The notes under the pieces are model-generated. The model was not told the DNA's origin and searched no databases. It saw nothing but the letters and a program-made list of their open reading frames with translations. Below, in pieces: positions 1,346 through 26,474 of a DNA stretch of 26,474 nucleotides. The position numbers and the translations under genes are program-made. Each line of letters opens with the position of its first letter. The first letter of the stretch is position 1. The stretch is from positions 1 to 26,474 of the forward strand of contig JBJCIZ010000782.1 of assembly GCA_051294375.1 (NCBI GenBank), read 5' to 3'. This DNA comes from Paraspadella gotoi. Taxonomy: Eukaryota; Animalia; Chaetognatha.

Positions 1346-1709
1346 TTATTTATCCTCCTCGTCTTCGAGGATGAGGTTTTCTTTCCAACGATATTCCAAT
1401 TATCCAATGAGGCGAGTTGACTCCAAATAGACCCAACTGAGGAAAATATTTTATCTCAAATTTGGATTTTATTGTTTTCCATACAAATTTTAAATGTACA
1501 TGTTGTAATTATCTGTCAAATTAGTTAGAGAAGAGAGAGAGAGAGGATGAGAGAGATTTTGTAATTAAACTGTAATTGATACCTTTGAGAGGTCTTGACA
1601 GACCTCGACGTCAGGGGACTCGGGAGACTTGAGTAAACTCGTCTATAATGAGAGCTTCCTCGTCCTGCAGAATGTATTCCAAGTTCTCGATCAGTTCGAC
1701 GTCACCCAT
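1346..1709 (-). CDS. Putative small two-exon acidic accessory gene B (frame uncertain)
   Basis: TTTCAG acceptor at 1739-1734, ATG at 1709 (MGDVELIENLEYILQDEEALIIDEF), intron 1582-1437 (AAAG|gtatc...ttttcctcag), last exon reading LEYRWKENLILEDEEDK* in one frame. Needs frame correction. Confidence 0.4.
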
Positions 1710-2957: not shown

Positions 2958-3130
2958 TTAGGGATCGAGTTCTAAGGGAATTAAAGATTTAAGGTGACGA
3001 CGCAGTGTTTTTTTGTTAGCGAGTTTCACGGTCGCTTCGCGTGGGTGAGGTCCATCACCCCAGACTTCAGTTATCACACCTAATTTCCACCCCTCGCGAG
3101 GCATGATAGGGTCCATAAGTAATACAACAA
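2958..3130 (-). CDS. pol: C-terminal end of integrase (DUF5641-like) with pol stop codon
   Basis: VVLLMDPIMPREGWKLGVITEVWGDGPHPREATVKLANKKTLRRHLKSLIPLELDP*, a typical Bel/Pao terminus. Confidence 0.9.
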
Positions 3131-3147
3131 AAAAAATGAGAGAGGAT

Positions 3148-3409
3148 TTATTCCGTTTACGTTTCAAATAATTTGAAAATTGAATAATTGCTTCAGAAAC
3201 ATAAGCTATTCTTCTTACCTTTAAGGAAAAGTTTTCAACTTTTTCCGTCATTTTTAGCACCAATTCATTTCGGAGTTTATTTCAACATTCAAGTTGGGAT
3301 ATTCTTTTGTTGCTCCCAGATATATTAATTCAACTGGAGAATAAATGCTGTGAAAATGTAAAGAATTTAAATTTGGATCAGAAATGAATTATTTTTCGTT
3401 GTTGCGCAA
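3148..3409. repeat. Direct repeat copy 1 (about 262 bp), near-identical to 5028-5291
   Basis: Aligned by eye: identical except for two 1-bp indels. Confidence 0.95.
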
Positions 3410-3754
3410 TAAAAGTCACAACCTGTAATGAGTTCTTCTTGCAGGTCAGGGCAAGAGGAAATGTCTTCTTCCAATGTCGCGGGTCGGAGGGCCAATCAGG
3501 AGCCGGATTTTCGACTGCATCTTTGTCGCGTCATTCGGGATTGGAAGTATTGCCGCGATGCTTGAGGTTTCACAAGGTCTGGTAGGAGAGTGTGACGAAT
3601 GAGAAGACGATAATTTTCCCGCCTTTTTGAGTGAGGTTGTGATTCGTTTTTCACTAACCTTTTAGAAATATCTGAGATATTGATTATGTTTTTGCCAATC
3701 AGCTTCAGCAATTTTAACCAATCTGGGCCCAAGTGAAATAGTTTCCAATTTTTT
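3148..3754 (-). other. Displaced pol segment (post-RNase H linker) lying inside the integrase C-terminus
   Basis: Starts with KNWKLFHLGPDWL, the W..GP.WL motif that normally follows NPAD..SRG. Its far end duplicates 5028-5291. It abuts the 25-N gap. Confidence 0.85.
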
Positions 3755-3779
3755 NNNNNNNNNNNNNNNNNNNNNNNNN
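3755..3779. other. Assembly gap (25 N)
   Basis: Run of N. Confidence 1.
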
Positions 3780-5291
3780 CGCGTCCAGGGTATAAGGAGT
3801 CTTGAGAAGAAAACCATTTGCATCGCTTCTGCAGTGAAGTTACGTATTCGGACGACCAGCGACGCCAGAAATTTTCAATGATTTCCTTTACGCATTTCCA
3901 AGAGGCACGTAGTTTGTCACCTTCAGAAGGAGAATAAGGAATTATACTAACTGCAGATGAAGTATGTAAATAAGGGTATAACAGGTTTAAAGGAGAAAAG
4001 AACCTCTGGTTATTATTATCACTTGAAACATAAGTGAGAGGACGGCGATTAAGAATGCCTGATATTTCAGCCAAGATAGTAGAAAATGTATCAATATCTA
4101 ACTCACTGGGTAAAGCTGCTTTGAGATGCTTTTTTGTCATTCCTACGGCGCGTTCCCAGACTCCTCCCAATGAGACGCCAGAGGAGGGCCAAAGGTCCAG
4201 GAGATTTGTTGCTTCGCGATCTCTTCGCCAAACTTTTCGTCATCCTGAATGAGTTTAAATTCGCGTTTTATTTTCTATCAGCACCAACAAAGTTAGTACC
4301 ATTATCTGATACAATATTTTTTAAACCAGGAAAATGATTTTTAAAACGAATGATAGCATTGATTACAGCGGGCGTTGACATATCACGTAAGATTTCAAAT
4401 GCAATAGCCCTCGTTGTAAAACATGTAAAGAGTAAAATATATTTTGAATTGTAGCCTCTACCTGCGTGTTTTACTTTGTACGGTCCAAACACGTCCAGGC
4501 CGCTAGTGTAGAAAGGAATAGTCGGATCAAGTCGCGACGATGGATAATCTGCCATCTTTTGGAATGTGGCTTCTTGAATGTCTTTTGACAGATAAGACAT
4601 TTATGAATAACATTGTCCACACAGGATCGTCCTCCTAAAAGAGAAAATTCTTTTTTTAAAGAATGAAAGGTGGCTGCAGTGCCAGCATGAAATAATGATA
4701 AATGTTCATAACGTATTAAAGATTGTACAACTTCATCCTTTTTAGGAAGTATGAGGGGGAATTTAGATTCATAATCAAGAGTATTACTATTTCTTAGTCT
4801 TCCTCCTGTTCTTAAACAGCCAAATTTATCAAGAAATGGGTTTAATGAAACAATATTAGAATTTCTTGTTCTTAATTCATTGTGGGAGTCAGGAGAAAGA
4901 CTCCAAGTTTAAAGAGTTCCGTCATTTCTTTTGAAAAATGTTTTAATTGAACAGATTTAATTAATTTAAGTTTGGCGGATTTTAAGTTTTCAGCTGTTAA
5001 TTTTATTTTATATTTAAGTGAGCGGGGTTATTCCGTTTACGTTTCAAATAATTTGAAAATTGAATAATTGCTTCAGAAACATAAGCTATTCTTCTTACCT
5101 TTAAGGAAAAGTTTTCAACTTTTTCCGTCATTTTTAAGCACCAATTCATTTCGGAGTTTATTTCAACATTCAAGTTGGGATATTCTTTTGTTGCTCCCAG
5201 ATATATTAATTCAACTGGAGAATAAATGCTGTGAAAATGTAAAGAATTTAAATTTGGATCAGAAGATGAATTATTTTTCGTTGTTGCGCAA
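3780..5291 (-). pseudogene. pol: RH-IN linker plus integrase (HHCC zinc finger, DDE core, start of DUF5641-like C-terminus), frameshifted
   Basis: Manual translation of 4560-5020: LNPFLDKFGCLRTGGRL..FPLILP..EHLSLFHAG..KCLICQK. Then GLDVFGP, SDNGTNFVGA, GGVWERAV, LNRRPL, FWRRWSSEYVTSLQKR. Confidence 0.95.
5028..5291. repeat. Direct repeat copy 2 of 3148-3409
   Basis: Same alignment; both ORF translations share KMTEKVENFSLKVRRIAYVSEAIIQFSNYLKRKRN. Confidence 0.95.
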
Positions 5292-6525
5292 ATTTGTACA
5301 ATTAGCCAATTTCGATTTCCATTCGGCTTTTTTCTGATTTTCAATAAACGATTCATCTCATTTTGTTCGCCATTTTTATCTCGACCACCTACACTTGAAT
5401 GGCAGGCGGTGGGTCCACCTCAATGGTGGGATTACACGCGACAAAGAGATGGCAAAGAATAATTCTTTGTTGGTTTTTTTTTTTGTGTCACTGAGTGGAT
5501 ATGCGAAATTGGACTAACGTTTCTCCTGCTTCGTTAAAGTCTCTGCAATTGAAAACAACATCATTTTTTGCGGTGAACGTTCGTCAATCAAAGGGCAATA
5601 CTGGAGCACGTCAGCGTCACGTTCTATGGGCAAGTTTTTTGGAACGCCGAAAAGACCATGTGGATCGGCGATGAGATGGGAGTATGTTTTGAGACCAAGT
5701 GGATCATGTTTGCGTTTGCGGCACATGCACCGTAGTCACTTGTAGAATGTACTGAGGATAGCCCTGGTTATGCCTCCTACCGCCACAGAGGACTCTGCGT
5801 CACGATGCTACGTCATCACTCTTTTCAAAAGTGCTAAATGTGTGCTCATCGTTTTGTGCTGTTCACTGTGTTCATGGGGTGCTATGCAACTTCATCACAA
5901 ACTTGATGTGCTTTTCGTGATTCATAATCAGAACTTCGTAATTTTTTTTCATGTGTGAATTTACCAACGCTACCGTATATTTTGCTAAATTATTATTAAA
6001 TTTTCATTTTGATATTTTAGCATTATTTAGCTTTAACTGGCCAAAAAGAAGTACTGTGATGTGTACTTTTATTTTAGAAAAGTGGCCGTTTTTAATTTAA
6101 TTTTATTTGCTTTACCTTTGATACTCAATTTTTTGCTTTCTTTGGTGCGTGGCCGAGTGGAGATCCTAGATTTTATTATTAGTAAGAAAGTAAATAAAAT
6201 GCCGGCCGAATTCTTTAAAAATTCGCAAATGCCCGCTAAGAAATATTTTTGCTCCCTCTGTTCAAACGCCGGTCGGCAAAAGCGTTACCTTATTTTGAAA
6301 GTATTTTAACTTGTTTACTTTACAAATGTTAAACCAAATTTTCTTCTTCTCTTCTCGCCAATAATAAAATGAATGCCACTTTGTACAATTAGCCTAATTC
6401 GAATTCGGGCATTCGCTTTTCTGATTTCAATAAATCGATTCATCTGCATTTTGTTCGCCCCATTTTTTATTCGTCGATGCTTTTCCCCGTTGCTCTTTTG
6501 CTCTTTATTACTGGACATCGAAATA

Positions 6526-8117: not shown

Positions 8118-9720
8118 ATGGAAGGGTCATTTAATCGATAGTTTAGAAGGGAAAGGGGGAAAGGGATGTGAGCGATTGTTCGAGTGGACGAGTACGGTCT
8201 CTGGTCCACGAACCCCGTTCCGTTATCTCGCAGTCCGTCCTGACTGCTTCCTCAGCTCCTCCCCTCCTCCTATTGCTTCAAAACCATGATCGTTTCTCTT
8301 CCTTCCGCCGTCGCCGCCGAAATATCGCGAGTTCGATCGTTCTGCGCTGACAAATCTCGTCGGCCCACACGCGGACGTTTCTGCGCATTTTTCCTTAACG
8401 CTAGGCGAGGAGCCCGTCATTCTTCTCCTAATAACTCGGTAACGTCCGTACGCATACGGATTCGCCTCGAGCAGAAAGGAGACTAACAAGGTTAGCCAAT
8501 AAGCGGAGCTGAGATTGGAATCGATCGAAAGAAATTGAAATGAACGGAAAAAAGCTGACGTAGAAGAAATCCTTAGAGAAATATAATTAACTGAACTCGA
8601 ACGAAAAGCTGAAAATGAAAAATTTGAAATGGAAATAAATCAAATGCATCAAGAGATTAGAAGATCACGTGATAATGTTTTCCAAAACGCAATAACTTCT
8701 AGGCACGGGTTTAAAACGCCGAGAGGATCGCACAATGGCTCGTTCATCGACGTCGCCGTCCGTAGTTAAAACAAGTCCGTGTGTTTCTAGGGATGCTCGA
8801 AGAGTTTGAAAAAAAGACAGTCTGTCCTGTTCTGCGACTCAGGTTGATTTTCCCCTCCCAACCAATCTAATTGTTATGTGTCTCAGTGTCTCAGAGGGTT
8901 TCCGGTCCGTTTCAGTGCTTTCGCGTCTGATTTCGCACACCCAACTAAAGGTTACGGAGAATTTTCATACAGGCAGTACCATTATCCACACAGGACAGGC
9001 ACAGTTGTGACCGATACTGAAAGCGAAATGGACTCGCATTTGCCCAGCTTTGTTTCCATTCAGAAGACCGCAACTCATAGCTTTCACGATGATGCATAGA
9101 GGAGACCGAAAATTAAAGGTTTAAATGGTAAGGAACAAGAGGATTGATTTTTGAAAGCCAGTTGATTTTGTTTAAACATCTTTAGCTTTAATTATGGTTG
9201 GAGTGAATGATCAGAATGTTTGATGAGTGAGATAAGGGAGTATTTTGATGGAGATGCTTGCGAGTTATAAATATCACAATATGAGGCTTCAAGTGATTCA
9301 CTGGGGGCCGCTAAAAAAGGTTCGGGAAAGGCCTTGAACGAGTTGAAGTTTGGAAAGAAAAAAAAGATACTACATCGGCCCACCAAATGTTTGGAAGAGC
9401 TTTTGAGGGACCCGAAGATTTAAAACAGGGGATTTTTGCTATGGCCGCTAGAAACCTTTGTTCTCCGATAATGGAAGAAGTTTCATTATTCAGTGCGATT
9501 GAAAACTAAGAGGTGGAGGCGACTTTTTCTCACTTTAGAAACGTACCGGGATAGATTGTTTTCAAAAAAAATTGCTTTCTTAGCACTTTCTTAAGCAGCA
9601 CTTGTGGCAAAGAGGATGATCGATTCGGAATGGGAAGAAGTTGCAGAGTGCTGAGTGGCTTTAAAAATTAAATATTCTAAATAATCTCGATGAAGAGTAA
9701 AATGAAGTTGATGCATTTGT
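8118..9720 (+). pseudogene. gag: Gag fragment of a second, related Bel/Pao element in the opposite orientation (very noisy sequence)
   Basis: Plus-strand translation RRPKIK..NGKEQE...MSEIREYFDGDACEL*ISQYEASSDSLGA...LKFGKK...LEELLRDPKI aligns with the main Gag RRPKTKFSGKDK...MRLNELKEYFSGDAQIIISQYETSSDYTDA...LNFGRK...LDDLLKGPRL. An E/K coiled coil lies at 8540-8670. Confidence 0.8.
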
Positions 9721-9726
9721 TAAACC

Positions 9727-10410
9727 CGTGTCGTCGGCTTCAATGCCACGACTTGCGAGATCCGCCGGGTTTTCGTGACCGGGGACGTGACGCCATTCTG
9801 AAATATTAGAAAGGGAACGGATTTTCTTTAGTCTAAAATTTTCAAAAGATTTAAACCTAGTAACCCAATCATTTATCCAACGTAATATTGTCATAGAATC
9901 AGTAAACATTATAATTTGGTCAAATGTTTCGCCTGACTCTCTAACGATTAAATCTCTCATCTGAGCTGCTAATCTGGCCGCTGTTAGTTCTAATTTTGGA
10001 ATACTGTCCCCATGGTCCTCCTGATTTTCAATTAAAACTTTTTGCATTTGGAGCGGAACTACATGGGATTTTGCAAGCATTAGTGATACATTGCAATCTG
10101 AACGATCATGGTTAGATTTTTTTATATATGCAGTCATTCCGTAACCGTCGAAGCTTGCATCGGAAAAAACAAATAATTCCGTGAAAGTCACGTCAAGACC
10201 TAATTTTGAAGTCCATCTAGGAATTTTAATCTTTTTAAGATTGTAAATCTTTTTTCGCCAATTATTAAAATCATTAAGAATCTCATTAGGGATTTCGTCG
10301 TCCCATTCTAAACGTAAATTTGTTGCTTTCTGAAAATTTATCCGACCTTTTAAAATAAAAGGGGAGACTAAACCTAGGGGATCATAAACAGAGGCAACTA
10401 ATTTTAACAT
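9727..10410 (-). CDS. pol: RNase H / Pao peptidase A17 (PF05380-like) region of pol; homology stops at about 9727
   Basis: ASVYDPLGLVSP, IPRW, FVFSDASFDGYG, AKSHVVP, SIPKLELTAA, FTDSMTILRWI, WRHVPGHENPADLASRG in ORF 9661-10410. The last ~18 residues of that ORF are not pol-like. Confidence 0.95.
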
Positions 10411-11640
10411 TTGACGACGGGTTTTTGCTTCTATCTTAGCTCGTTCAGTTATTCTAATGAAAAATATGTCTCTTTTAAAATTATATCCGACACCTAAAAT
10501 TTAATCATCATGTTCATCTAAATTTGGATCTTCAGGCAAAGCATTTTCGCAAACAGAATTTAGATCATCATTTAAATCCTCACCTTGAGAAATATCATGT
10601 GACTTCGGCTTCGCTCGCTCGAAATCAGTTTCGTTGGACCCGATTCCCGTTCCGTTTTCGTCGGGATCTTCATCTGAGGAAAGTAAAACTTCAGGGTGAG
10701 ATGACTTCCACTTCAACAATTCAAACCCCCCCGTTTAAGAGCCTCGGTTAGATATTTTCCATTCTTCTACCGACTTTAACATTGTCAACACTATCTAAAT
10801 AGTCATCAACGTAAAATTTAATAAACATAGCTAAGATAACCTCAGGAGGATAATCGTTTTCAATTATTTTAGCGTGATAGCGAAGGACAAAATTGGCAAT
10901 AGTTGGGCTGCCTCCCCCCCCAAATATTTGGACTAGGCTTTCGTGAATTTCAAGTTCAGTCATTTTTTTATTTTTATACCAATAATAGCGAAACGCGGCG
11001 ACATCCTTAGGGTGAATTTCAATTTGATGGAAAAAACCCTTGATATCTGCTGATAATGTAACCATATTTTTTCTAAATTTCATAAGTATACACAATTAAT
11101 GGATTTAAATTATCTGGTCCTGCAATTAAATAATCATTTAAAGAAGTGCCTTTAGTTTTAGACGCTGCATCTGGCAAATACGAAACTTACCAGGCTTGTC
11201 TGCTCTGGTTACGACATGTATAGGAGTATAATATTCTGGATTGTCGTCATCTAAGTCAAAGTTGGTCGCTTTCCGAGATTGTCCGTCATTAATTGTCTCT
11301 TCCATTGTCTGAAAAACTCCTTCTAATAACTCAGTATTTTTTCGTAGTTTATTAGCAGTCTTTTTTGCTCTATTTTTAGCGTTTTCAATAGTCGCTGGTT
11401 AAGATCTCTAAATATTTTTGCTGTTTCTTTTCTACCCAATTTCCAAGGTGTGGGGGCAATATAATGGCCAGTTTTATGATTAAAACTGATTCCCTCTTCC
11501 AACTGCTTAATAGCTTCAAGGTCAGCTTCGGATGGGTGAGTGACCTCAGACGGATAAATCTCAGTGCCTCGCATGAGAAAGTCGTGACGGAACATGGAAT
11601 GAATTAAATATTCTAAATGATCAGTTTCGGGAATAATGGA
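10411..11640 (-). pseudogene. pol: Reverse transcriptase domain (frameshifted)
   Basis: GHYIAPTPWK, YTPIHVV..KPGKFRIC.DAASKTKGTSLNDYLIAGP, ADIKGFFHQIEIHPKD, FGGGGSP, FYVDDYLDS, LKWKSS, ILGVGY. Confidence 0.95.
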
Positions 11641-11649
11641 ACAGCAGTT

Positions 11650-12237
11650 GATATGTTCATTGGAATCATTAATTTCACTGGCACCAATTAGAGTCCAACC
11701 AAATTTGGTTTTAATAGCGATTGGGTGGCCTTCTGGTCCTACCCTGGTTTCACCCCTACCCAGGCAAAAGCCATTTTAGCGTCAAGAATAACTTCAATAG
11801 AATCATTTTTTAATTCCTCAAACCAAACATCAGTCATGTAATCATATTCTTTAATCTCGTCATTTTCGACATGGTCTGTCATGTTCAGTAGTCATAATGT
11901 CTCCTATTAAGGCACGTTTAATCTCAGTTTCAAAAGATTTATCAAGGGGAGATATTTTAAAATCGCAATAGTCACGCCATGATTGCGTCACGGATTCATA
12001 AGTTGTTAAGTTAGTAAACATTGAATAAGTATTTAAATTTAAAAATATTTGCAATATTAGATGAGACGCAGAGCGAGTCGCTCCTGAGTCTAATAAAGCG
12101 TATGACACAACTTGTTTATCGCCATTTGAAATTATTAGTGGAACAACAGTGTCGAAAAGCACCAGTTGTGGCATACGCTGCTGCAAGTCAGGAGTTTTGA
12201 GAAGTAGGGTTAGAGCTGTTGTCGGTTGTTGATGCAA
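11650..12237 (-). pseudogene. pol: Aspartic protease domain of pol (frameshifted)
   Basis: SYALLDSGATRS catalytic motif; downstream GPEGHPIAIKTKFGWTLIG read across a frameshift. Confidence 0.88.
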
Positions 12238-12239
12238 TT

Positions 12240-15170
12240 AGATTCGGATTGGGAGAGCGATTGATGTGTAGTGTCACGTGGTGTCTTCCGCCGCATGATT
12301 TGCAGCCCAGTAAGGAGCGGCAGTTGATTGTTGAGTGACCTTTATTTAGACAGATAAGGCAAATGTACTTTTCCCTTAAGAAAGGAATGTTTATCATCAT
12401 GAGACATGCTTAAATATTTTTTGCAGAGAGCAAGACTATGAGAAAAATTGCATGCCGGGCAAGGATCACGGTTTGAAGGGTTAGCAGAAGCATTTTGGCC
12501 CTGGTTTTGCTGAGAGGTTTGTTGGTAAGTTTGAGTTTGTGATTGATATGATTGATTTCGAGTTGCTTGATTTGTTACATTTTGAAGTGGACGGCTCATT
12601 CTCAGAGATTGTCCAGCTGTCGTGCGCGGGTTGAAAATGCGGATTTATTTGATTTCTTGAATGTGGTGGGTGGGATTTTGGATTTACATTAGGGTTTGGA
12701 AACATTTGAGCGCCAGTAGGAGATGCTGTTGATGCTGCAGCAAGTCGTGCTGCATAGGGGTTGCTGCGGGAGTGTTGGTAAGTTGAATTTCTTGCAGCAG
12801 TAGACGTGGGTGCTTGTGAAGATTTTAACTCTTTAGGTTTTAAAAAGAAAGCTTTCCTTTCTTGTATTTTTTGAGCTCGTTTTAAAAATGATATAAATTG
12901 AGGAAATTGCATTACTACGTCATCTCTGTCACCATCACGATCTAAGATATCTTGTTCATAGGTTATGCACTGTTTAGCCCAAGCAAAAGCCCAATCTGGA
13001 AATTTAATTCCTATTATTTCTCCGTAAATTTCTTGCGTCGAGAAAGTCGAATCTCTCCCGGTTTCTTTAGCTTTTAAATATATCGTTCTAAATCTAAAAT
13101 AAATGTTTGTACTGCTGCAACATCTCGGTGTCAATCTTGGACCCTTTAGTAAGTCATCCAGTAACTGTCTGGCAGTGAAAAGTTTACGTCCAAAGTTTAA
13201 TTTTAATGCTCTCTTTACCTTTCTTAATGCATCAGTATAGTCACTAGAAGTTTCATATTGTGATATAATAATCTGAGCGTCGCCAGAAAAATATTCTTTT
13301 AGTTCATTCAATCTCATTTCGTCGTAATTCCCTCAATATTAGTCAAAGCATCAAACAAAGACATTTGACTTTCAAAATCTATGTTTTTATCCTTTCCTGA
13401 AAACTTAGTCTTTGGTCGTCTCTGACACATCATATTATAAGATGTTGTTGTAATTGAATATTACATAATCTATTAAAGGCACTGTTACTGTCATTTATAT
13501 TATTTGTGCTAGGATTAATATTATTATTTTGTGGGGCAGCATAGGGAAAGGAGTTGGAATAGTCATTTCGGGAAAACTATTATTTGGAATGACGTTCGTC
13601 GTCATTGTAAGTTGGGGAGTAGGAAAATTAAGAAGAGGATTGCAAACGCTAACCATAGGCGGCGCTTGTTGAGGAAAGATGGTTGGAGCAAAGGTGGTAA
13701 GGGTGGAATAGGTTGTCCATCATGGTTACAGGATGTGAGTTTGGGTGAGTATAAATTGGCGCAAGAGGATTCAAGACTTGAGAGTAGTAAGGAGGATTAA
13801 TGGGTTGCGAAAAGTGAGGGATGGGTGAGTTAGAGGAGGGAGCTGATTATTTTCAGCATGAAAAGGTTGGGGAAATGATTTTGAATTATTGTTTTTAATA
13901 TTTTGATTAGCGGGTAAAAAGTCATTTTGAGACATATTTTGATTGAAACTCAGGTTATCTGGTAAACTTTGATTAATTTTAGGTGACATAGAATTTATCC
14001 TTTCATTCCCTGATACGGGATTTACGAAAGAGTGTGAACTCACCGGAGTTGAGCAGCGTGGTTGTCTTTTTTGAGTAGGAATGTTTTTTTCGGAATTCCG
14101 TTCGGTTGCAGAAACACGAGGGGAAGTCCTAGGAATGATTATTATTAATAATTATCTCTTCTCCCTCTGCAATAGATAATCTATCAAATTCTTGATCACT
14201 GAAATTATCTTTACTTTGTTCAAACATTTCGTAATTTATTAATTCTAATTTTTTCTTTTCTATCTCAAATTCTTTTTCTAATCTTTTTTTCTGTTTTTCT
14301 AGTTCAATTTCGTGTTTTTTCTTTTGTCTTTTTAATTCTGAAAGCTGCTCTAACTGAAGTCTTTTAAACTCACGTTTTTTCTCGTCTATCTGTTGTTTTA
14401 AAGATTCACTTTGTTTGTTAAATTTATATATATTAATTTCCTCATCAGAACAATCGTCCTCAGATGAAATTTGCCGACGCGGTTGATTTCGGTCAGAAAG
14501 AATTGGAATGGGGATGGAGATTGTCTACTCATAACTTGTTTGGAAGGTTTCGAAATCACGGGAGGGTGGTGGAAAAATGAACTCTGGGTAAGTTTTTTGG
14601 AGTTGAGGACGAGACGTATCAGAAAACTCGAAAAAGACGAATCAGACGGATTACAATTCTAGTACGCTGCACTCGCGGTTTCCTCACTAGTGACTTTCGT
14701 ACGGAGTCTTGATTCACTACTAACGTAGGAATTTCGTAAGTTTGAGGGAAATAATCTTCAGGTAAGGAAAATTCAACATGTCTAGGTTCGTGAGTAACGT
14801 GATCAAAGATTTCAGGATAACAGTTACGTTGAGAACGGACGATGGGACCTGTCGTTGAGGAACTGGGAGCCCTTTGTGACGCACGATCAGACAAAACCCT
14901 TTTTGCAACATTCATGACATGGGTTACTCGGTCAGTACCAAGGTGGGTGTAAATTTGAACTGCCTTTGACAGGGTTTCAACTCCCTGGCTCACCCTATTC
15001 CTTGCTTCTAACTCACCTAAAACAGGACCGTTTGTTTCATCAGCATCTACCTCATAACTCATCCTTTCAAAGGTCTCAATGTCCCTAATTAACTCATGAA
15101 CGATCCTACGAATTCCTCGCTCGTTAATATTTTCAATATTCTCAAAAAATTTAGAGTAATCCATGGCCAT
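12240..15170 (-). pseudogene. gag: Gag region of the Bel/Pao polyprotein (frameshifted): N-terminal domain, K/E coiled coil, N/P/S-rich linker, DUF1759-like core, three zinc knuckles
   Basis: ORFs 14619-15170, 13771-14043, 12481-13317, 12342-12599 and 12188-12400. Core RRPKTKFSGK..LKEYFSGDAQIII; knuckles CPACNFSHSLALC, CLICLNKGHSTINC, CKSCGGRHHVTLH, the Bel/Pao pattern. Confidence 0.9.
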
Positions 15171-15490
15171 ACCTTGACGAGTTTGTGATGCGGAGTGAAT
15201 CGTGAATAACGGGAATGATAAAGATAATCCAATGCCTGAGTGTGATTGATGAAGAAAGCAGAAAACGTGGTCAGGCTAAGTAAATTACTTTTCTATGTGA
15301 AAATTTTTATCTAAACGAAATAAGACGGAACGGCGTCATCGCCGATCAGTGACTGACTAAATTTATTAGTAATATTTTATTAAGAAAGAAACTGGTACGT
15401 TTAAATTAAATAAATGTGTAGTTAATTTACGATAAATTAAAATATTTTTCACGTTCAATCAGACAAACAAAGTGATAGTCTTAATTTTAC

Positions 15491-16118
15491 CGGACAGGGT
15501 CGAGCGCTGCTCCGAAATAAACAGGATTAATCACCGTAAGGATAGTAATATTTCCACAGGGTCGAGCTCTGTGATAAATTTAGACAGGATCAATCACTGT
15601 GACATTGTATAACAGGTTTTTAAACACTGTTATGTCCGTAAACAGGTTCTAGCGCTGTTTGATATTTTAAATAATAAAAAACACACGGCGGTCGAGCGCC
15701 GAGCGTCGATCAAGTTCAATCTTTGATCNNNNNNNNNNATTTAAATTTAAGACAAACAGTTCGATCTTGTTTGCCGTTATATATTTAAATATATTATTCT
15801 GTTGCTTCTTAACAACAGCTATATTAATTAATTTTATTTAAATTTCCGCTGAGCGGTCCGGGTCGGACACGGACCGAGATTTAATCAATATTAATTAGCG
15901 GTCGGATTTATTCACAACCGTAATAAAATAATAATTTACCAGGATCGTCCGCTGGTATCATGTTAGGTTACGGTTTCAATACCGTACAGGAAAAATAACG
16001 GGATTTATGACCCTCCGAAATTTCTTATGTCACACGGGTTCAAGCTCCGTGTTTTAATTTTAGAAGACAGGATCGACCGCTGTCTAAGTTTAATATTTAA
16101 ACGGATTTAATCTCGTTT
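15491..16118 (-). ncRNA. Array of about 16 structurally conserved stem-loops in the retrotransposon 5' leader
   Basis: Stems of 3-7 bp with differing sequence enclose, on the minus strand, a 1-nt bulge, G, a mostly 6-nt loop (CTCGAC, GTCGAT, ATTGAT, CTTGAA, ATCGAA, CTAGAA, GACGAT, TCCGAC) and C. AT-rich spacers separate them. Confidence 0.8.
15729..15738. other. Assembly gap (10 N) inside the hairpin array
   Basis: Run of N. Confidence 1.
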
Positions 16119-16200
16119 CATCACTCGCATTCAACACAAATAAATTAACTTAAAAACAGTAATAACCATTTAATTAGAACGAAAGAGGAAGTAAGGATAT

Positions 16201-16209
16201 ACGTACCAG
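16201..16209 (-). promoter_or_regulatory. Candidate major 5' splice donor (CTG|GTACGT) upstream of the hairpin array
   Basis: One mismatch to GTAAGT; sequence becomes AT-rich just downstream. Motif evidence only. Confidence 0.4.
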
Positions 16210-16359
16210 TCTTCACGGGGAAATACTATCGGCTTCGTAACTCATCTCGGTTGCCGATCGCGAGTTGAGAAACGGAAAAATATATTTTTCTGCAATCATC
16301 AGGTCATCTTCGAATAATGAGACGAGGACTGGAAGAATTTACAGATTTATAATATTAAA

Positions 16360-16382
16360 TTCACGAAGCACCGAAAAAATTG
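16360..16382 (-). promoter_or_regulatory. Candidate 5' LTR end (CA) and primer-binding-site-like sequence
   Basis: Minus strand ...ttcctCA atttttTCGGTGCTTCGTGA loosely resembles TGGTGC-type tRNA primer sites; imperfect. Confidence 0.25.
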
Positions 16383-17867
16383 AGGAATAAAAGCTTTTCA
16401 ATGTCACGAAAATACCGTGAGGTGGAGACTTTTCGAGTGCTCTCCCGACAAAACACGCCTCACTGCCCCCCCACAACGCGCGGCTCTCATTCTCTCTTCC
16501 CACTATGGGTAACAGGTCTTGATCAGACACCTCTCAGGGCTTCGCAGGACTGATGAAATGTCTTGAGACCCAGGGGGATCCTGTGGCGCGGGTATATCTC
16601 ACACACCGCCTCACGTTCACTACTCTGTCAAGCCAAATCACATTGCAGATCAGAGGGGGAACACCACCATCCCAGGACAGTCAAGATGGTTCACACTTCC
16701 AACAGTCCTAATGAACTTCACCCTCATGCGTGAGACAAAGCAGACCGTCCATAGAACAGGTAACGCGCCGTGACTGGAGGCTGTTCACTAGAGGGTCGGA
16801 AGCCCCAAAGCACAACAGTGAGACTGCCCATCCAATGGCATCACAGGTAAACCCGGCCTGTTTGCCATACTACTTAGACAAAATGTTTACAAAAATAGGT
16901 GCCGAGTTCCTAGGAATCTATGAAATATTAAACTTTGGAACAACTTACAGAATTAGAGAGACAAAATTGACAGAACGATAATTACTAAATTGGAGGCTAA
17001 CTCAAAAAATACTACATACCCCTAACACCTTCATTCAATGTTTAAACTCGAATGGATTGATGAAGGTAAACATATGATTAGCCAAAAATATTTAATGAAA
17101 CGTTGTTGTTCTAAAAGGTCATAAACAATAATAACTGGTATTTTACATTTATAATTCAAGGTTATTCAATTTACTAACAAGTAGTTTAATAAAATAACAT
17201 AAAATAAAAATATTTTTGTGTCCTATTTTTAAATTTTTTAATGACCATTATTTCAGCGAAAACGTTGCACTCGGCCAATCAGTTTACATCATCGAGTTAC
17301 AGTAGTTTGTATACAAACCAGAAAAGCAATCACTGATGGCACTCTATTACAAGTAAGGATGGAATTTGGCTTAACTCTAAAAATCTGCAATTCTTAACCA
17401 GGTAAAAGATTTTCCTGCCTCCATTTAGAAAATATCAATACTATGTCCCGCATGTCAACAGTCATGAACCAATTTTCTATGAAATTGGTACAACCAACTA
17501 TAAAATTATAAATAAGCTCATGACTCTAGCACATGCTTTGGTGATTTTAGGCCTCAATCACTCTTACAAAGATCAATTACATAGCTGGATCCCCGCAAGT
17601 CTTTCAATCAAGATTCTCTCACAAATTCATTTATTTTTACTTCATTATCCATGAAGTGGAACTGGTTTTAAAAAAACTGTTTTCTAATTGCTATGGACGG
17701 ACCCACTTCCTTAACAGTATTAATCAGAGCAGAGAGAACTTATATGTACTCCACACTAGCATGCAAAATACAGAATTAGTACAACAATAGTAAAATTCTC
17801 CATTTCAGTAGATTAATATTTAGAGACAAAGATGTTTATGTATTTGTACAACGATTTATTTTAATAG

Positions 17868-18150: not shown

Positions 18151-19849
18151 AAAGTCAGGGCAAATAGCTTATTTATTAAATGAATGGATAATTTGTATAT
18201 TGTTGTACCAATTTATAAAAAAATAAAAAAATAAAACTAAAGTTAATAACAAAGATTAATAAATAATTGTTTGTGAGACGAGACATCTCGCTTAAAAAAA
18301 AATTCACCATTTTGTCGTAATTAGGAGAATTCCGTTCCTCAATGTCTGACTACCCAATTGCAAACCGCTTTTCCAGAAATTCGGTTAAAAAACACTTGAT
18401 AAACGCACCGATTCGAGAGCGTTACATCTGAAAAGAGCTGTTCCTATTCGTTTTATGGCATTTGATAAAGGATCTTAATATCAAACAGCCAGGGAAATGC
18501 ATACTATCCCGGAGAATTTTCAAACCTCATTTTTCTATAGAAATGAAGGGAAAGTTTACAAACTTACAATTGCACCGGGATTGCTATATGTTCCTGTTAC
18601 ATGGGCGACTTCGATTTCGCGATGTCTGATAGTTTGTGTCTTGAAGAGCTTGTCCTATATTTTTTCTTTTTCTTTTATAATGATTCTTGACATAAAAATG
18701 ATCAGGTTTAAATCGAATAGTCCGATTTGAAGTCGCGAAATTTTAATTTAAAAAGAAATTAAAAGGAAAGGTTGAGAAAAAAACGGATTTTTCCTAATAT
18801 CTTTTGAAGAGAAAATAAAGATAAAGGCGATGGCAATAGTACCAAAAATAAAGCCATAATCATAGGGGGGGTACATACAGATACATTTATAGAATTAGCT
18901 TATGCTAAACCTCCATTACAGGATGAGTGTCAAACTAAGTCAAAATTCTATAATGATATTAAAACTTAATGACACCCCATAAGAATAGATAAAAATTTAA
19001 TTCTTTTTTAATGATTCTGAGAGAAAAAGGCTAAATGTAATTCTAGTTAAAACTGGTAAAGGTTTTTTGGATAAAGAAAATTGCTGACAATTTTTTGTCA
19101 CTTAAAATTTGCTTAGTCTATTTTACAAGCATGCTACAAAATTCTACCAAAATAATTATTGACCCCATCACAGGCCTAAGTATTTATCCTTCTTTTTCAC
19201 CAGCAAAAATAGACAGGATGGTTTACTGAAAGGGCACGGAAAGCCATCAACTTCTTCACGTTGATATTATTTTCAATATAAATATAAGCGAATTTTTTAA
19301 TTATTAACTCTTACAGGCATTCATAAGATATTACACTTTCATAATCATCCCAGATGTAATGTAATTTATATTTTTGCTACCAAGACATAATAAGAATAAC
19401 AAGAGCAAGTGTGGATTCCGTTCGCTCGATTTAAGAAAAATAAATTAACTAGGCGGAATTATAAGTTTGTAAGGGAAATCAGAATCGAGCCGAAAATCTT
19501 TAAAAGGCGAGAATGTTGGAAAAAAAGGGGGTGAATTGTGATTGCTGAGTTTCCCTACAAGATTCCCTCGACCAACTTGTGCAACAGGTCCGAATATAAG
19601 CTGGGCAAACTGGCAGATTTTACAATATTCCCGTCATTCCACACTATCCGAATTATACTAAAACAATTTTTTATTTAAAAAGAAAAAAGTCACTGCTTCC
19701 TTTTTCCGCATATAAGGCGGCTTCCTCAGTTATGACAAATGTGGAAGATTTTGAATTAATGAAAAATTGAAGATATTGAAAAGGAAGAATAACTTAATGA
19801 GGGATAGATATGATTAAAGGATAAGGAACAAATAAGGTGACGAAAGAGC

Positions 19850-21220
19850 TCAAACTGAGCCTGGCCCCACCCTGCAGGGCAAATGAGGCGCTAACAATGA
19901 GCTCGAGTCCTTGCTTGTAATGAGTTGAGAGGACTATATGTGGGGAGTGGGACCGAGGTTGGTGATGCTGAAAGGATCTGCGGATGATAATACCATGCGG
20001 CCACTTAATATTCTCCCGTCGACCCTTCCGATAAAGGTTGCGAGAGCCCTTCCCATCCTGACCGTGCCAGCGGCAGATTGTCTGTTCTGGCTGTTTAGAA
20101 ACAGGAGATACAGACTCCCTCTCCTCCTCCTGCCAGCTGTCGCTGGCCGGCGCTCAGTATGACGCAAAGAGATCTTACCAAGTTGCTGCTAGGTTTGGGA
20201 GATGGCATTGATCGCCATTGCCTGCTAGCGAGGTCTCCGCCTGACACCATTGAGTGGGGACAGGGGAATCACCGTGCGTTTAGGTGGCGTTGGGTGCTCC
20301 ACCACAGTTATTGATTAGTAAATACACTAGACTTGCGAGGGAGTAATTTGAACTCGTCCTCCATCCGGTTCAAAGAGCTCGGCGCTTTGAGTAAATCGCC
20401 TCTCCTAAACTGCTTAGATGAACCAGTTTTGGTCATGGAACGCGCACTTACAAGACAGTCTTCCTCTCTTAAACATATGGCCATATTGTCACATGCTCTG
20501 CAATTGCGAAAGGAAAAACCCTCCTGAATCGCTGATAGGGCTTAGACGTGCTGCTGGAACGATCTGAAACAGATTTGCCTGCTTGACCCAACATGATGCT
20601 GCTGTACAGGCCTGTCTGCGACCCGCCCCTGCACAGGCGCACCCACAGCACGTGGCTCCCTGATGCTCTTTCCGATCCCTCCGGGTGAATTTTGCCCTTT
20701 TGGTTTCACCAATTGCTCAGCGTAGCATAGTCGGGGCGTTGTAACTGAAATGCCAGATCCCGCTCTTGCTAAGCACCCGCACCAATGATATCAGATGATC
20801 CCCCTGGTGGTAGCGGGAGGGACCAACGTGACCCACCGTTTTGGAGACTCTTCCCTGCTTATATTCTTCCGAGTTGTCTCACCTGGTGCGGCGGCCTAAG
20901 ACTCGCGTACCTTCAGCAGCAAAAGGCCCTTTCGTTTCCCGGGGTGCGGTAGGTTTAACTACCCGTTAAGCAGACTACTTGCAACAGCCCCCTTGATTGT
21001 GAGCCACCTAGATCCTCAGCCACGATTCTCTGACCGAGAACCTCGCCCTCTTTCATGTAAGCCACAGAGTAATACTGATGCCAGAGCTCTTTTGATGTGC
21101 CTCAACTTTCGGCGAGCCTGAAGCTCGGGGTGACGGAATCAGAATTCGCCCTTCTGGTAATGCTTACCTAGAAGTTTTAACAAACAGATGAAAAACAATC
21201 TTTAAACAAATGTGCTTACC
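19850..21220 (-). pseudogene. GC-rich degenerate coding-like block, unassigned
   Basis: Visibly higher GC than flanks; long minus frames with scattered stops (ELWHQYYSVAYMKEGEVLGQRIV; LISLVRVLSKSGIWHFSYN); 52-bp gtaagc...ttctag intron-like segment at 21219-21168. Confidence 0.35.
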
Positions 21221-23859: not shown

Positions 23860-25210
23860 GATTGGAAATCATGCAAGTGGAAATGAGTTAATGGAAAAAC
23901 ATAAGTACATAACTAAAAATTTTTTACTTCAATTTATAACCTATAATTACGCGAAGTATCATAATTGAGTATGAATATATGAGATGAAATTTTGTTGGGA
24001 GGTAGGAAAGTGTGTGACGAAGCTGGATATAAAATTTAATGAAATCATCAAGCAGAATTCGAGTTTAAACGGAAAAAACATATGTACAGTCCAATCATGT
24101 GGATCATTTTATTATTTTAACCATAACGACTCAAATTAATCCTATGGTGGATAATTTGGGAAGAAATTTTGTGTGCGAGTGTAGGAAAGTGTGAGATTGG
24201 AGCAGTATAAAATGTCTCAATGGAATCGGGAGTGGAAAATGAGTCTCTGCATTGAAAAACCAAAAGATCGACGTTGACTTGAATGCTTTATTATTCTGCT
24301 TATTGCATAAATGTTTTAATTACTAGTTAAGTAAGAATGAACAATTTGAAAAAAAATGATTGCAATTTAAACTAACTGCATGTTTAAACAATATTTACTG
24401 CAAGCTTGCATAATTTTTTAACCTTACATGAATTTTTAAACTTCCCATATATTTTTCAAGGTTGAAAAAATGATCGCAAGTTGAAAAAATGATGCAAGTT
24501 ACAAAACGATACGAGTTTGAAAAAATGAATGTGAGTTTAAAAAATTTGTGAGCTGAAAACATCTCGATTGTTAAATTTAAATAAGTTTGATCAAACAATG
24601 TCGAATCTGCCACGATCATTATCGGTAAATAATTAATTAATAATTCAAATTGATTCAAGGTAATTAATTAAGCAACTTAATTAATTAAATGACCCAAATG
24701 TTTGTTTTTAGGTCTTTTCGTCACTAACGCACGACATAAGCAATGATCGATGATCGAGAATAATGCGATATGAAGCTTGACTTGATTCTGATTGAACTGA
24801 TTTTAATTATGTTTTCATTTAATGATTGACTCATTGATTAATTTATTGATAATTAATACATCATTGGAAAACTTTACACTTTTGATCATAAAGGAAAAAA
24901 TAAGCATAAATCAGATTTAGTGCAATCAGGCTTGTGTTTTTTCCATCTTAAACTCATTTCTACCAGATCGATTCCATTGGAAACTGATTCCAGCTTAACT
25001 CAACACACTTTTCGCGTACCCAACATTACCAAATTCAAGGATTCCAAATCGGCCATCACTCATGAGCAATGGTGTGTTCAAATAGTGAACAATATTAGTT
25101 TTGTTGTTTTTTCCATTTAAACTCTTTTCCACTCGAACGATTCCACTCAAAACTACATATTCAGCTCAATCACACACTTCCCTACCACACACAAATTTTC
25201 ATGTCAAAAT
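23860..25210. mobile_element. Foldback/MITE-like structure: degenerate tandem units as inverted arms around an AT-rich core with an 18-19 bp minisatellite
   Basis: Plus units at about 23860-23905 (partial), 23985-24090 and 24160-24265 (gtaggaaagtgtg...tggaatc...gagtggaaa.gagtttaaa.ggaaaaaaca); inverted copies at about 24930-25035 and 25100-25205; aagttgaaaaaatgatgc repeats at 24457-24560. Confidence 0.6.
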
Positions 25211-26474
25211 CCATCCATCCAATTAACAAGTTAATTGGTGTTTTTGCTAAGGTGGTACGGCACGGAGGACAGATGGGGTGGATCAGACATCATTTTTTTT
25301 GCATAATTATCATAATTCGATGTTCTGACATGATATAAGGTGTATACACTGCCCGGACAATATGAGGGGGCGGACCGACGGACCAACAAAATGAATACTA
25401 TAGAGTCGAGATCTTGCTCTTTTATCAGATCGACTAAAAATAACAAGTGAAAAACGTATATGCCGGTTTTGAAAAAATTATGCAAGTTGAAATAAAGATG
25501 CAATGTACTATGTCTATAATTATTTATACCATAGTAACAGCTTCAGTTTAATCGGTGAAAGCGATTTACATTGTATTTGGCGCAGCCACCGGGGTTGATT
25601 TAGATGTATATGGTATGATGTTATGATCAGTTTAATATCACAAATATTAAAGAATATATCGTGATTTATCATCTGATTAGCTGCTAATTATCATAGGCGG
25701 ATCCGACATGTTTGCTCAACTTGTTATTAATTCATGAATGTATGATTACAATTTTTTTTTTCAGATCCCTACTTATAGTTCCGTTTGCTTTACTACAAAT
25801 AGAGCAAAAAAAAGCCCTGGATCTTAAAGTTTCATTGGCAGAAAAATACAAAGGTTACTCACATAATATAAATTCTGAATTATTAAAGCAAAAACAAGTA
25901 AAACTAAGTTTTAAAAAAACCCTTTCACGGCTGCTTCCCGAAACCTCTTAACGATGTTAGTATTGGTATTATTCTCAATTTCCCCTCGATTCCCCTACAT
26001 TATTAAATATGTTCTCAAAATTCCTCCGCGCTCCTGTCGATTCGCGCCTCGCGTGCCTTGCCTCTTCCTCCTACCTTATCTTCTCCATATATCCTCCTCT
26101 TCTTCCTCTTTTCCTCGCTTCTCCGCGGACGCTGCTCGTGCCCTCCTGGCATTTCAGTTTTTGCTTTCCCTCCTCGATAGCACCTCGTTCCTCGATTATT
26201 TTTAGTGATTTATGGGTTACCTTGGAGATCCGGGGTCATACAAGTAGGTTATTAAATAGTTAGTAAATATTTATCGAATTCCTCTTACTGCTTTATATTA
26301 AATAGCTTAGCTAATAGTATAGAATGCTTCGATGTACGTTATTGACTGTTAATCGTTTTGCTTCAGCTTTCAAACCCTACTACATCGATGTTCTGTACTT
26401 TTACTCTACTAAATAATACACTACAATGGTTAAAGCATTTCCCTCGACTTCATTTCCTTAGATATATTTCACTT

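Follow-up and report, generated by a model that had tools for sequence, protein, structure and literature searches.

The window (the whole stretch of Paraspadella gotoi DNA analyzed here, 26,474 nucleotides of contig JBJCIZ010000782.1) contains a broken Bel/Pao element on its minus strand, with an array of hairpins upstream of the element's gag gene. When 17 frames of the element were scanned, Peptidase_A17 (E 4e-36) and Integrase_H2C2 (E 4e-8) were above the Pfam cut-off, and RVT_1, rve and DUF5641 were below it. The domains support the Bel/Pao context that a preliminary description, made from the letters alone, had given to the array, and the array lies upstream of gag, whose ATG is at position 15170. 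The Belpaoviridae are metazoan elements (ICTV profile, PMC8742986), and the Bel/Pao domain order of protease, RT, RNase H/Pao peptidase A17 and integrase is present, with the integrase part displaced in the window.

The first open frame of gag (14619–15170, minus strand, as are all parts of the element) begins at that ATG; its translation has no Pfam match, and no homolog of a Gag core was found at E 0.001 among proteins of similar length. Bel/Pao Gag's triple Cys-His box motif (PMC554778, in part) can be read in the translations as three boxes over two frames (12188–12644), with weak zf-CCHC matches below the cut-off. A protease motif, the RT (YVDD) and pieces of the Pao peptidase A17 lie in several frames at 9661–12237 (translations and Pfam), and integrase pieces (H2C2, rve and DUF5641, by Pfam) lie at 2958–4908. 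A putative promoter at 16316–16352, read from the sequence, consists of a candidate TATA (16352) and an initiator-like site (16320). Many frameshifts break the coding regions and ~4 kb of high-copy repeats lie inside pol; run contigs join the pol and integrase parts differently from the window, and so that part is rearranged or misassembled. Bel/Pao LTRs are 0.2–1.2 kb long, and no direct-repeat pair was found within the window; the 3′ end of the element may lie outside it. The leader gave no match to a relative's 18-nt primer-binding site at three or fewer mismatches, and no convincing candidate for one.

We also note several other repeated sequences. A 270-nt direct duplication (3140–3409 and 5020–5291, 98% identity) lies around the integrase block within the scrambled pol, and an inverted similarity of 66% between 9089–9321 and 13217–13433 suggests that a piece of a related element lies in opposite orientation inside the pol insertion. 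Three related pieces of 80–90 nt (5288–5377, 6375–6467 and 656–734; 76–84% alike, with high run depth) are likely a dispersed repeat or an LTR piece of another family. Upstream of the element are high-copy repeat pieces (16519–17023 and 17428–17600; depth hundreds to thousands). Run contigs that depart from the element at 16441 go on into sequence almost identical to the window's right end (26443–26474) in reverse complement, pointing to a second copy of the 5′ part of the element, inverted and lying just past the window, or to a collapsed assembly. Farther away, a long degenerate inverted repeat (23962–25225, 62%) around a 19-nt tandem repeat (24461–24545) looks like an old foldback or MITE-like element, and a GC-rich segment (19794–21100, up to 55%) with a minus-strand frame of 119 aa and no Pfam match is possibly a piece of another mobile element.

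The hairpin array and its transcript context

The array occupies positions 15491–16118 of the minus strand and has 18 hairpins (49% A+T) with spacers that are 82% A+T, and its units are spaced 24–57 nt from center to center. It ends 320 nt before the gag ATG, both lie on one unbranched DNA contig, and a short run of Ns between two units interrupts it. All 18 hairpins of the preliminary description, about 16 regarded as typical and two as atypical, were recovered at their positions; we number them u1 to u18 in the sense direction. Fourteen have a full sense-strand form: a stem of 4–8 bp, a one-base bulge on the 5′ side, a G-C pair and a loop of 6–8 nt ending in R-A-H (6 nt in 11 of them and 7–8 nt in three). 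The statement that nearly all units carry the same bulged cap holds for 14 of the 18; u12 (15686–15701), which had been listed as typical, has no bulge, and u4 (15999–16017) is degenerate.

At the 5′ end of the array, u1 (16099–16118) has a 5-bp stem, bulge A, the G-C pair (common to all full-form units) and a 7-nt loop. Units u2 (16065–16085; bulge C, hexaloop GUCGAU) and u3 (16032–16052; bulge A, hexaloop CUUGAA) have 6-bp stems, and the degenerate u4 has a 3-bp stem and a 10-nt loop. Next are u5 (15969–15986), an unbulged perfect hairpin with a loop of the shared type, AUUGAA; u6 (15937–15957), with a 6-bp stem, bulge C and hexaloop GACGAU; u7 (15899–15920), with a 6-bp stem containing an interior U-G pair, bulge U and a 7-nt loop; and u8 (15854–15876), with a 7-bp stem, bulge U and hexaloop UCCGAC. 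The plain hairpin u9 (15799–15818) has an unrelated loop and is outside the motif. The middle of the array continues with u10 (15751–15775; 8-bp stem with an interior G-U, bulge A, hexaloop AUCGAA), u11 (15708–15728; 6-bp stem, bulge A, hexaloop AUUGAA), u12, an unbulged perfect hairpin with the G-C pair and hexaloop CUCGAC, u13 (15640–15660; 6-bp stem, bulge C, hexaloop CUAGAA) and u14 (15609–15633; 7-bp stem, bulge U, 8-nt loop). The last four are u15 (15584–15600; 4-bp stem, bulge U, hexaloop AUUGAU), u16 (15555–15573; 5–6-bp stem, bulge A, hexaloop CUCGAC), u17 (15521–15537; 4-bp stem with an interior G-U, bulge U, hexaloop AUUAAU) and u18 (15491–15514), which has a second bulge in its stem, bulge C and hexaloop CUCGAC, and whose 3′ arm contains the last exon bases before a splice donor. 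Among the 14 full-form units the bulged base is A in five, U in five, C in four and never G (p 0.058). The loop ends in R-A-H in 16 of 16 tabulated units, its commonest cores are UCGA (5) and UUGA (4), and the three loops of 7–8 nt contain no G.

The donor directly after u18 belongs to a probable 255-nt GT-AG leader intron (15236–15490, minus strand) that has a pyrimidine tract and a CAG acceptor and is represented by one junction contig of depth 3. This contig is from runs X8/X9, which are taken to be RNA by guess and are likely one data set, and it has no counterpart in runs X1 and X2; neighboring X8/X9 contigs break where a splice bubble predicts. Since a comparable junction in the 3′ part of the element also occurs in DNA run X3, this one may derive from a reverse-transcribed spliced copy; splicing of the sense strand is implied either way. 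X8 contigs cover 15490–16070 apart from the N run, and the gap in their cover at about 16071–16316 is uninformative; they also have a variant on the free first loop base of u13 (depth 3.8), which may be an error. Immediately before the array, a candidate GT-AG intron of 58 nt (16149–16206, minus strand) was read from the sequence and is without read support; together with the intron of 255 nt, it would turn the array into a separate exon. A strong donor-like site, AAG/GTATGG at 15172 (minus strand), overlaps the start of gag 63 nt after the leader acceptor and could splice the array exon to 3′ genes. In the 3′ part of the element, short frames without a Pfam match may hold a spliced accessory gene, and a 146-nt GT-AG interval (1437–1582, minus strand) is skipped by contigs of X8 and also by those of X3, a DNA run; there may therefore be DNA copies that lack the intron.

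Since the array is upstream of the donor at 15490, it would be present in spliced RNA too. It has the location of a retroviral-type packaging signal, in the 5′ leader before gag, and would not be confined to unspliced RNA; the sites of MMTV, ALSV and HIV-1 are likewise not so confined (PMC8096270, in part).

Structure, covariation and strand

The array is real. A strict pattern for the structure, which was defined with the data already in view, matches 13 times in 651 nt; 12 of these matches are named units and one lies across two units. In 2000 dinucleotide shuffles it matched 0.52 times on average and at most 4 times, and in the remaining 25.8 kb of the minus strand it matches 28 times. Selecting sites by the cap letters only is less circular, and 11 of the 13 such sites in the array pair at four or more of five stem positions in the register with a one-base 5′ bulge, compared with 5 of 137 outside the array (p 2e-11); in four other registers 0–1 of the 13 array sites pair. 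A model built from the 11 hexaloop units recovers the held-out u14 (15.7 bits) and, weakly, u1 (9.3 bits), and all 12 of its matches with E <0.1 in the whole window are inside the array (11 being the training units), the best match elsewhere having 11.8 bits and E 0.71. The two halves of the array have fold z-scores of −2.6 and −3.9, the scores of 100-nt sliding segments are modest on both strands, and plain hairpin density does not single the array out; the shared cap alone sets it apart.

Within the 11 hexaloop units the cap columns G, loop A and C are invariant, and columns 4–6 of the 5′ stem arm carry 0.1–0.5 bits. Of 27 departures from the commonest stem letters 24 keep pairing, 18 by two-sided change, and 22 two-sided cells were counted against 7.7 in shuffles (reached by 0 of 500); the units are paralogs chosen as hairpins, and so these covariation figures are not probabilities. 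Template switching can generate multi-base compensatory changes (PMC8794818, in part), and because it can also produce compensatory stems, covariation alone is no proof of RNA function. The idea that selection acts at the RNA level stands in part: the cap-only test and the paired stem changes support selection on structure and cap, and the array is likely under selection, but the argument for the strand from two G-U pairs alone is weak.

The G-U pairs that the preliminary description had placed on the minus strand in the stems at 15521 and 15899 are correct, and there is a third at 15751–15775, giving three interior pairs possible on the minus strand only and none on the plus strand only (p 0.125). 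In the loops, the core UCGA becomes UUGA four times (4:0) and never UCAA, so stems and loops together give 7:0, in events that are not independent. Folding energy picks no strand, with unit sums of −92.8 kcal/mol for the minus and −102.2 kcal/mol for the plus strand. Stem probability is at least 0.75 in 10 of 14 units at a 60-nt span and in fewer at 400. Units u15–u17 are predicted to cross-pair at equilibrium through their shared arms, and so local folding there would need co-transcriptional folding or a binder. Overall, the units likely fold in the sense (minus-strand) RNA.

By analogy with the T-loop motif (PMC4919913, in part), a T-loop-like fold of the cap is possible. Both strands of the array unit resemble the G-N-U-Y-R-A of the tRNA T-arm or B-box, from which the unit differs in having a six-base loop plus bulge rather than a seven-base loop, stems that are often longer than 5 bp and no strict B-box; there is no tRNA gene in the window. 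Annealing of the units to host tRNA T-arms was rejected by inspection, as the units mismatch the positions opposite T54 and C61; these tRNA positions are invariant and tRNA capture is thus unlikely.

Copies, relatives and precedents

The DNA runs X1 and X2, from two studies (X1 is possibly the source of the window), each contain one contig that runs from 14607 to ~16430 without a substitution, and DNA run X3 has a like contig with four other letters and 11 gap positions over 13909–16431. Depth over the array is flat (174 in X1 and 31 in X2), compared with hundreds to thousands on neighboring repeats. A satellite or MITE, whose presence genome-wide the preliminary description had named as evidence against its reading, is rejected among copies of at least 80% identity by this flat depth and by Tandem Repeats Finder, which reports no tandem array. 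Contigs drop rare variants, and copies below 80% identity are unseen, so the run data give no between-copy covariation.

In Rfam, positions 15000–17500 have four weak matches, all far below the gathering score. A metagenome scan supplied Bel/Pao relatives, of which the best 80 of 165 were kept; these represent 78 loci that are 29–58% identical in the peptidase. The search of related leaders that had been proposed did not extend the array: the 78 loci contain none, the model giving five scattered matches at E ≤10 in 439,917 bases. Frames were mapped for the 37 loci with long upstream DNA, and 29 upstream stretches (151–2635 nt, their limits being drawn roughly and perhaps taking in LTR or flank) were given a motif-free test in which at most two hairpins share a cap, versus eight in the window (shuffle maximum 3). 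As judged from these distant loci, Bel/Pao elements do not have the array in general; the closest among the best 80, L006 and L008, start inside coding sequence and their leader is missing. In one distant Bel/Pao locus (L020) the DNA upstream of gag has, at 1150–1420, tandem repeats of degenerate sequence in which a GGTAGA core recurs, and no shared-cap signal.

A pattern of three units has no match in metagenome contigs, and no Bel/Pao relatives were found in viral contigs. A two-unit pattern has five matches in viral contigs, four of which are phage tRNA T-arms read antisense, and 14 in prokaryote genomes against ~11 by a rough chance estimate; at such matches the model never finds more than two units. 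We note that in the prokaryote loci L087/L092 (595–663) and L094 (597–659) both pattern units score as full hairpins (17–22 bits).

Searches of accessible full texts on Bel/Pao and retrotransposon leader structures and their analogs gave no Bel/Pao leader hairpin array, in agreement with the preliminary description, according to which no such array is known to have been described for Bel/Pao. The original Pao paper reportedly has tandem sequence copies in the R region of the LTR; these too are repeats close to the 5′ end of the RNA in a Bel/Pao element, and differ in being described as tandem LTR copies. PMC3118150 has no match for hairpin, stem or untranslated, and the ICTV Belpaoviridae profile regards the replication of these elements as poorly understood and mentions neither a packaging nor an export signal (PMC8742986).

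Possible functions of the array

A conserved cap with free stems and loose spacers is how a recognition site repeated along single-stranded nucleic acid looks. The reading we prefer, tentatively and with a confidence that stops somewhat short of even, is that one hairpin, in 14–17 degenerate copies that likely fold in the sense RNA, offers multivalent docking, most probably to the element's own Gag, for packaging. Many Gag molecules would then gather at the 5′ end of the RNA and so start particle assembly on this RNA. The units would have arisen by local duplication and their stems would have drifted through paired changes, template switching perhaps helping, as selection kept the cap. We prefer Gag because the array lies upstream of gag, because Gag has the triple Cys-His box and because of the analogies with multiple packaging signals and MMTV; by analogy, Gag would be the binder and packaging the job. 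Zinc knuckles read G, and the G-less loops of 7–8 nt fit poorly, which counts against docking of Gag. Counting against the reading as a whole are covariation that is seen among paralogous units chosen as hairpins, rather than among diverged copies of the family, compensatory changes that template switching can make, a folding energy that does not favor the sense strand, the predicted cross-pairing of u15–u17, the expected presence of the array in spliced RNA, a splice junction known from one contig of depth 3 and the lack of an array in the 78 loci and 29 upstream stretches.

Packaging signals of the MS2 type likewise consist of many stem-loops that vary in sequence, have a loop motif (and, in MS2, a 5′ bulge) in common and are read by coat protein (PMC6281560, in part). 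They are dispersed over the genome, whereas the array is packed into 630 nt of leader, without others in the window, its bulge base varies and it is known here from sequence alone. The 5′ regions of HIV-1 and MoMLV have hairpins before gag beside the major donor, some with self-complementary loops. Similarly, retroviral packaging and dimerization regions such as MMTV SL4 are 5′ untranslated hairpins before gag, the MMTV Gag site being just upstream of the major donor (PMC8096270, in part). Such regions consist of a few distinct hairpins, unlike the 14–17 copies of one form seen here, and the primer-binding site of the array's element was not found. Among the retrotransposon cases covered here, the nearest is the palindromes of Sirevirus LTRs, which are likewise hairpin-capable repeats in 5′ non-coding LTR retrotransposon sequence and vary among families; there the arms are more conserved than the center and the repeats are in the upstream half of the LTR, whereas in the array the cap is conserved, the arms vary and the sequence runs unbranched into gag (PMC4728375, in part).

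Alternatively, though this is unlikely, the array may bind a host or accessory protein for export, localization, translation or splicing, in a Rev/RRE-, CERV- or IRES-like manner, with u18 tuning the donor. Several observations are in line with this: the array is upstream of the donor and hence in both RNA forms, in u18 the donor's last three exon bases are paired (unpaired probability 0.03–0.06 at a 60-nt span), the inferred 1150-nt leader has nine upstream AUGs that would hinder scanning, and additional short frames and a GT-AG junction are present in the element's 3′ part. No accessory protein was found, however, as 0 of 24 pieces pass a Pfam cut-off, and an export element is expected in unspliced RNA only, which counts against the export form of this idea. 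A precedent is Cer1 of C. elegans, whose export needs CERV, a protein from a spliced message (PMC10309623, in part).

Rather less likely still, the loops may kiss one another (U-A, Y-G, G-Y, A-U) in a lattice that dimerizes or compacts the RNA, with or without protein. The palindromes to which the preliminary description had drawn attention in several loops are not enriched when strict pairing is required (9 of 16, p 0.12), but self-complementary 4-mers that allow G-U are present in 13 of 16 loops versus 8.6 in within-loop shuffles (p 0.006), and this on the sense strand only, the plus strand having 10 of 16 (p 0.34). The C/U exchange opposite a fixed G is one that wobble pairing tolerates, although a C-to-T change at CpG would likewise yield UUGA. 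Shared ancestry means that the loop count is not independent, and a 6-bp run occurs in just 2 of 136 loop pairs, both A-U only.

Sites on double-stranded DNA, for a transcription factor, an insulator protein or, as weak B-box-like sites, TFIIIC, are improbable. The units are near-palindromic, and 10 minus- and seven plus-strand 9-mers are one mismatch from GWTCRANNC, which we take to be the B-box consensus; the antisense tRNA T-arms in four of the five viral matches of the two-unit pattern agree with this. No unit is a strict B-box on either strand, though, the sole strict match straddling a stem arm and spacer, and DNA sites predict neither that unrelated arms change together over 5–8 bp nor the G-U asymmetry. 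Clustered motifs in the A+T-rich spacers of a retrotransposon 5′ UTR are also the design of the gypsy insulator, which has 12 Su(Hw) sites (PMC2374998, in part). That insulator keeps a linear DNA sequence, and the array, whose stems vary in pairs, does not.

We give equally little credence to a neutral minisatellite of quasi-palindromes whose pairing is kept by template switching in DNA replication or reverse transcription, even though template switching creates and repairs stems (PMC8794818, in part), the bulge is lost from u5 and u12, as if they had been corrected to perfect palindromes, u15–u16 and u17–u18 look like a two-unit duplication and no conservation was seen in the relatives tested (78 loci, 29 upstream stretches), because 14 units keep bulge and cap, stems and spacers are too diverged for Tandem Repeats Finder, and drift should strike loops as often as stems, yet R-A-H is kept in 16 of 16.

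Docking of Gag, the reading we prefer, can also be joined with kissing of the loops: in an operator array, each of the 14–17 bulged hairpins would dock one Gag and kiss others via its UYGA loop, in a lattice that dimerizes the genome and nucleates the particle. This combination we judge unlikely, to about the degree of binding by a host or accessory protein. If it is true, Bel/Pao elements would gain in the array their first defined cis-acting RNA signal, and the engineered MS2/PP7 arrays would have a counterpart in nature. As a compact array with one sharply defined cap, it is a small and cheap test object for RNA recognition in Bel/Pao elements, and if a partner is found, the cap and its protein could serve as an RNA tagging pair. 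It also bears on the wider question of whether, in place of a single strong signal, retrotransposons use stem-loops that are weak but repeated many times.
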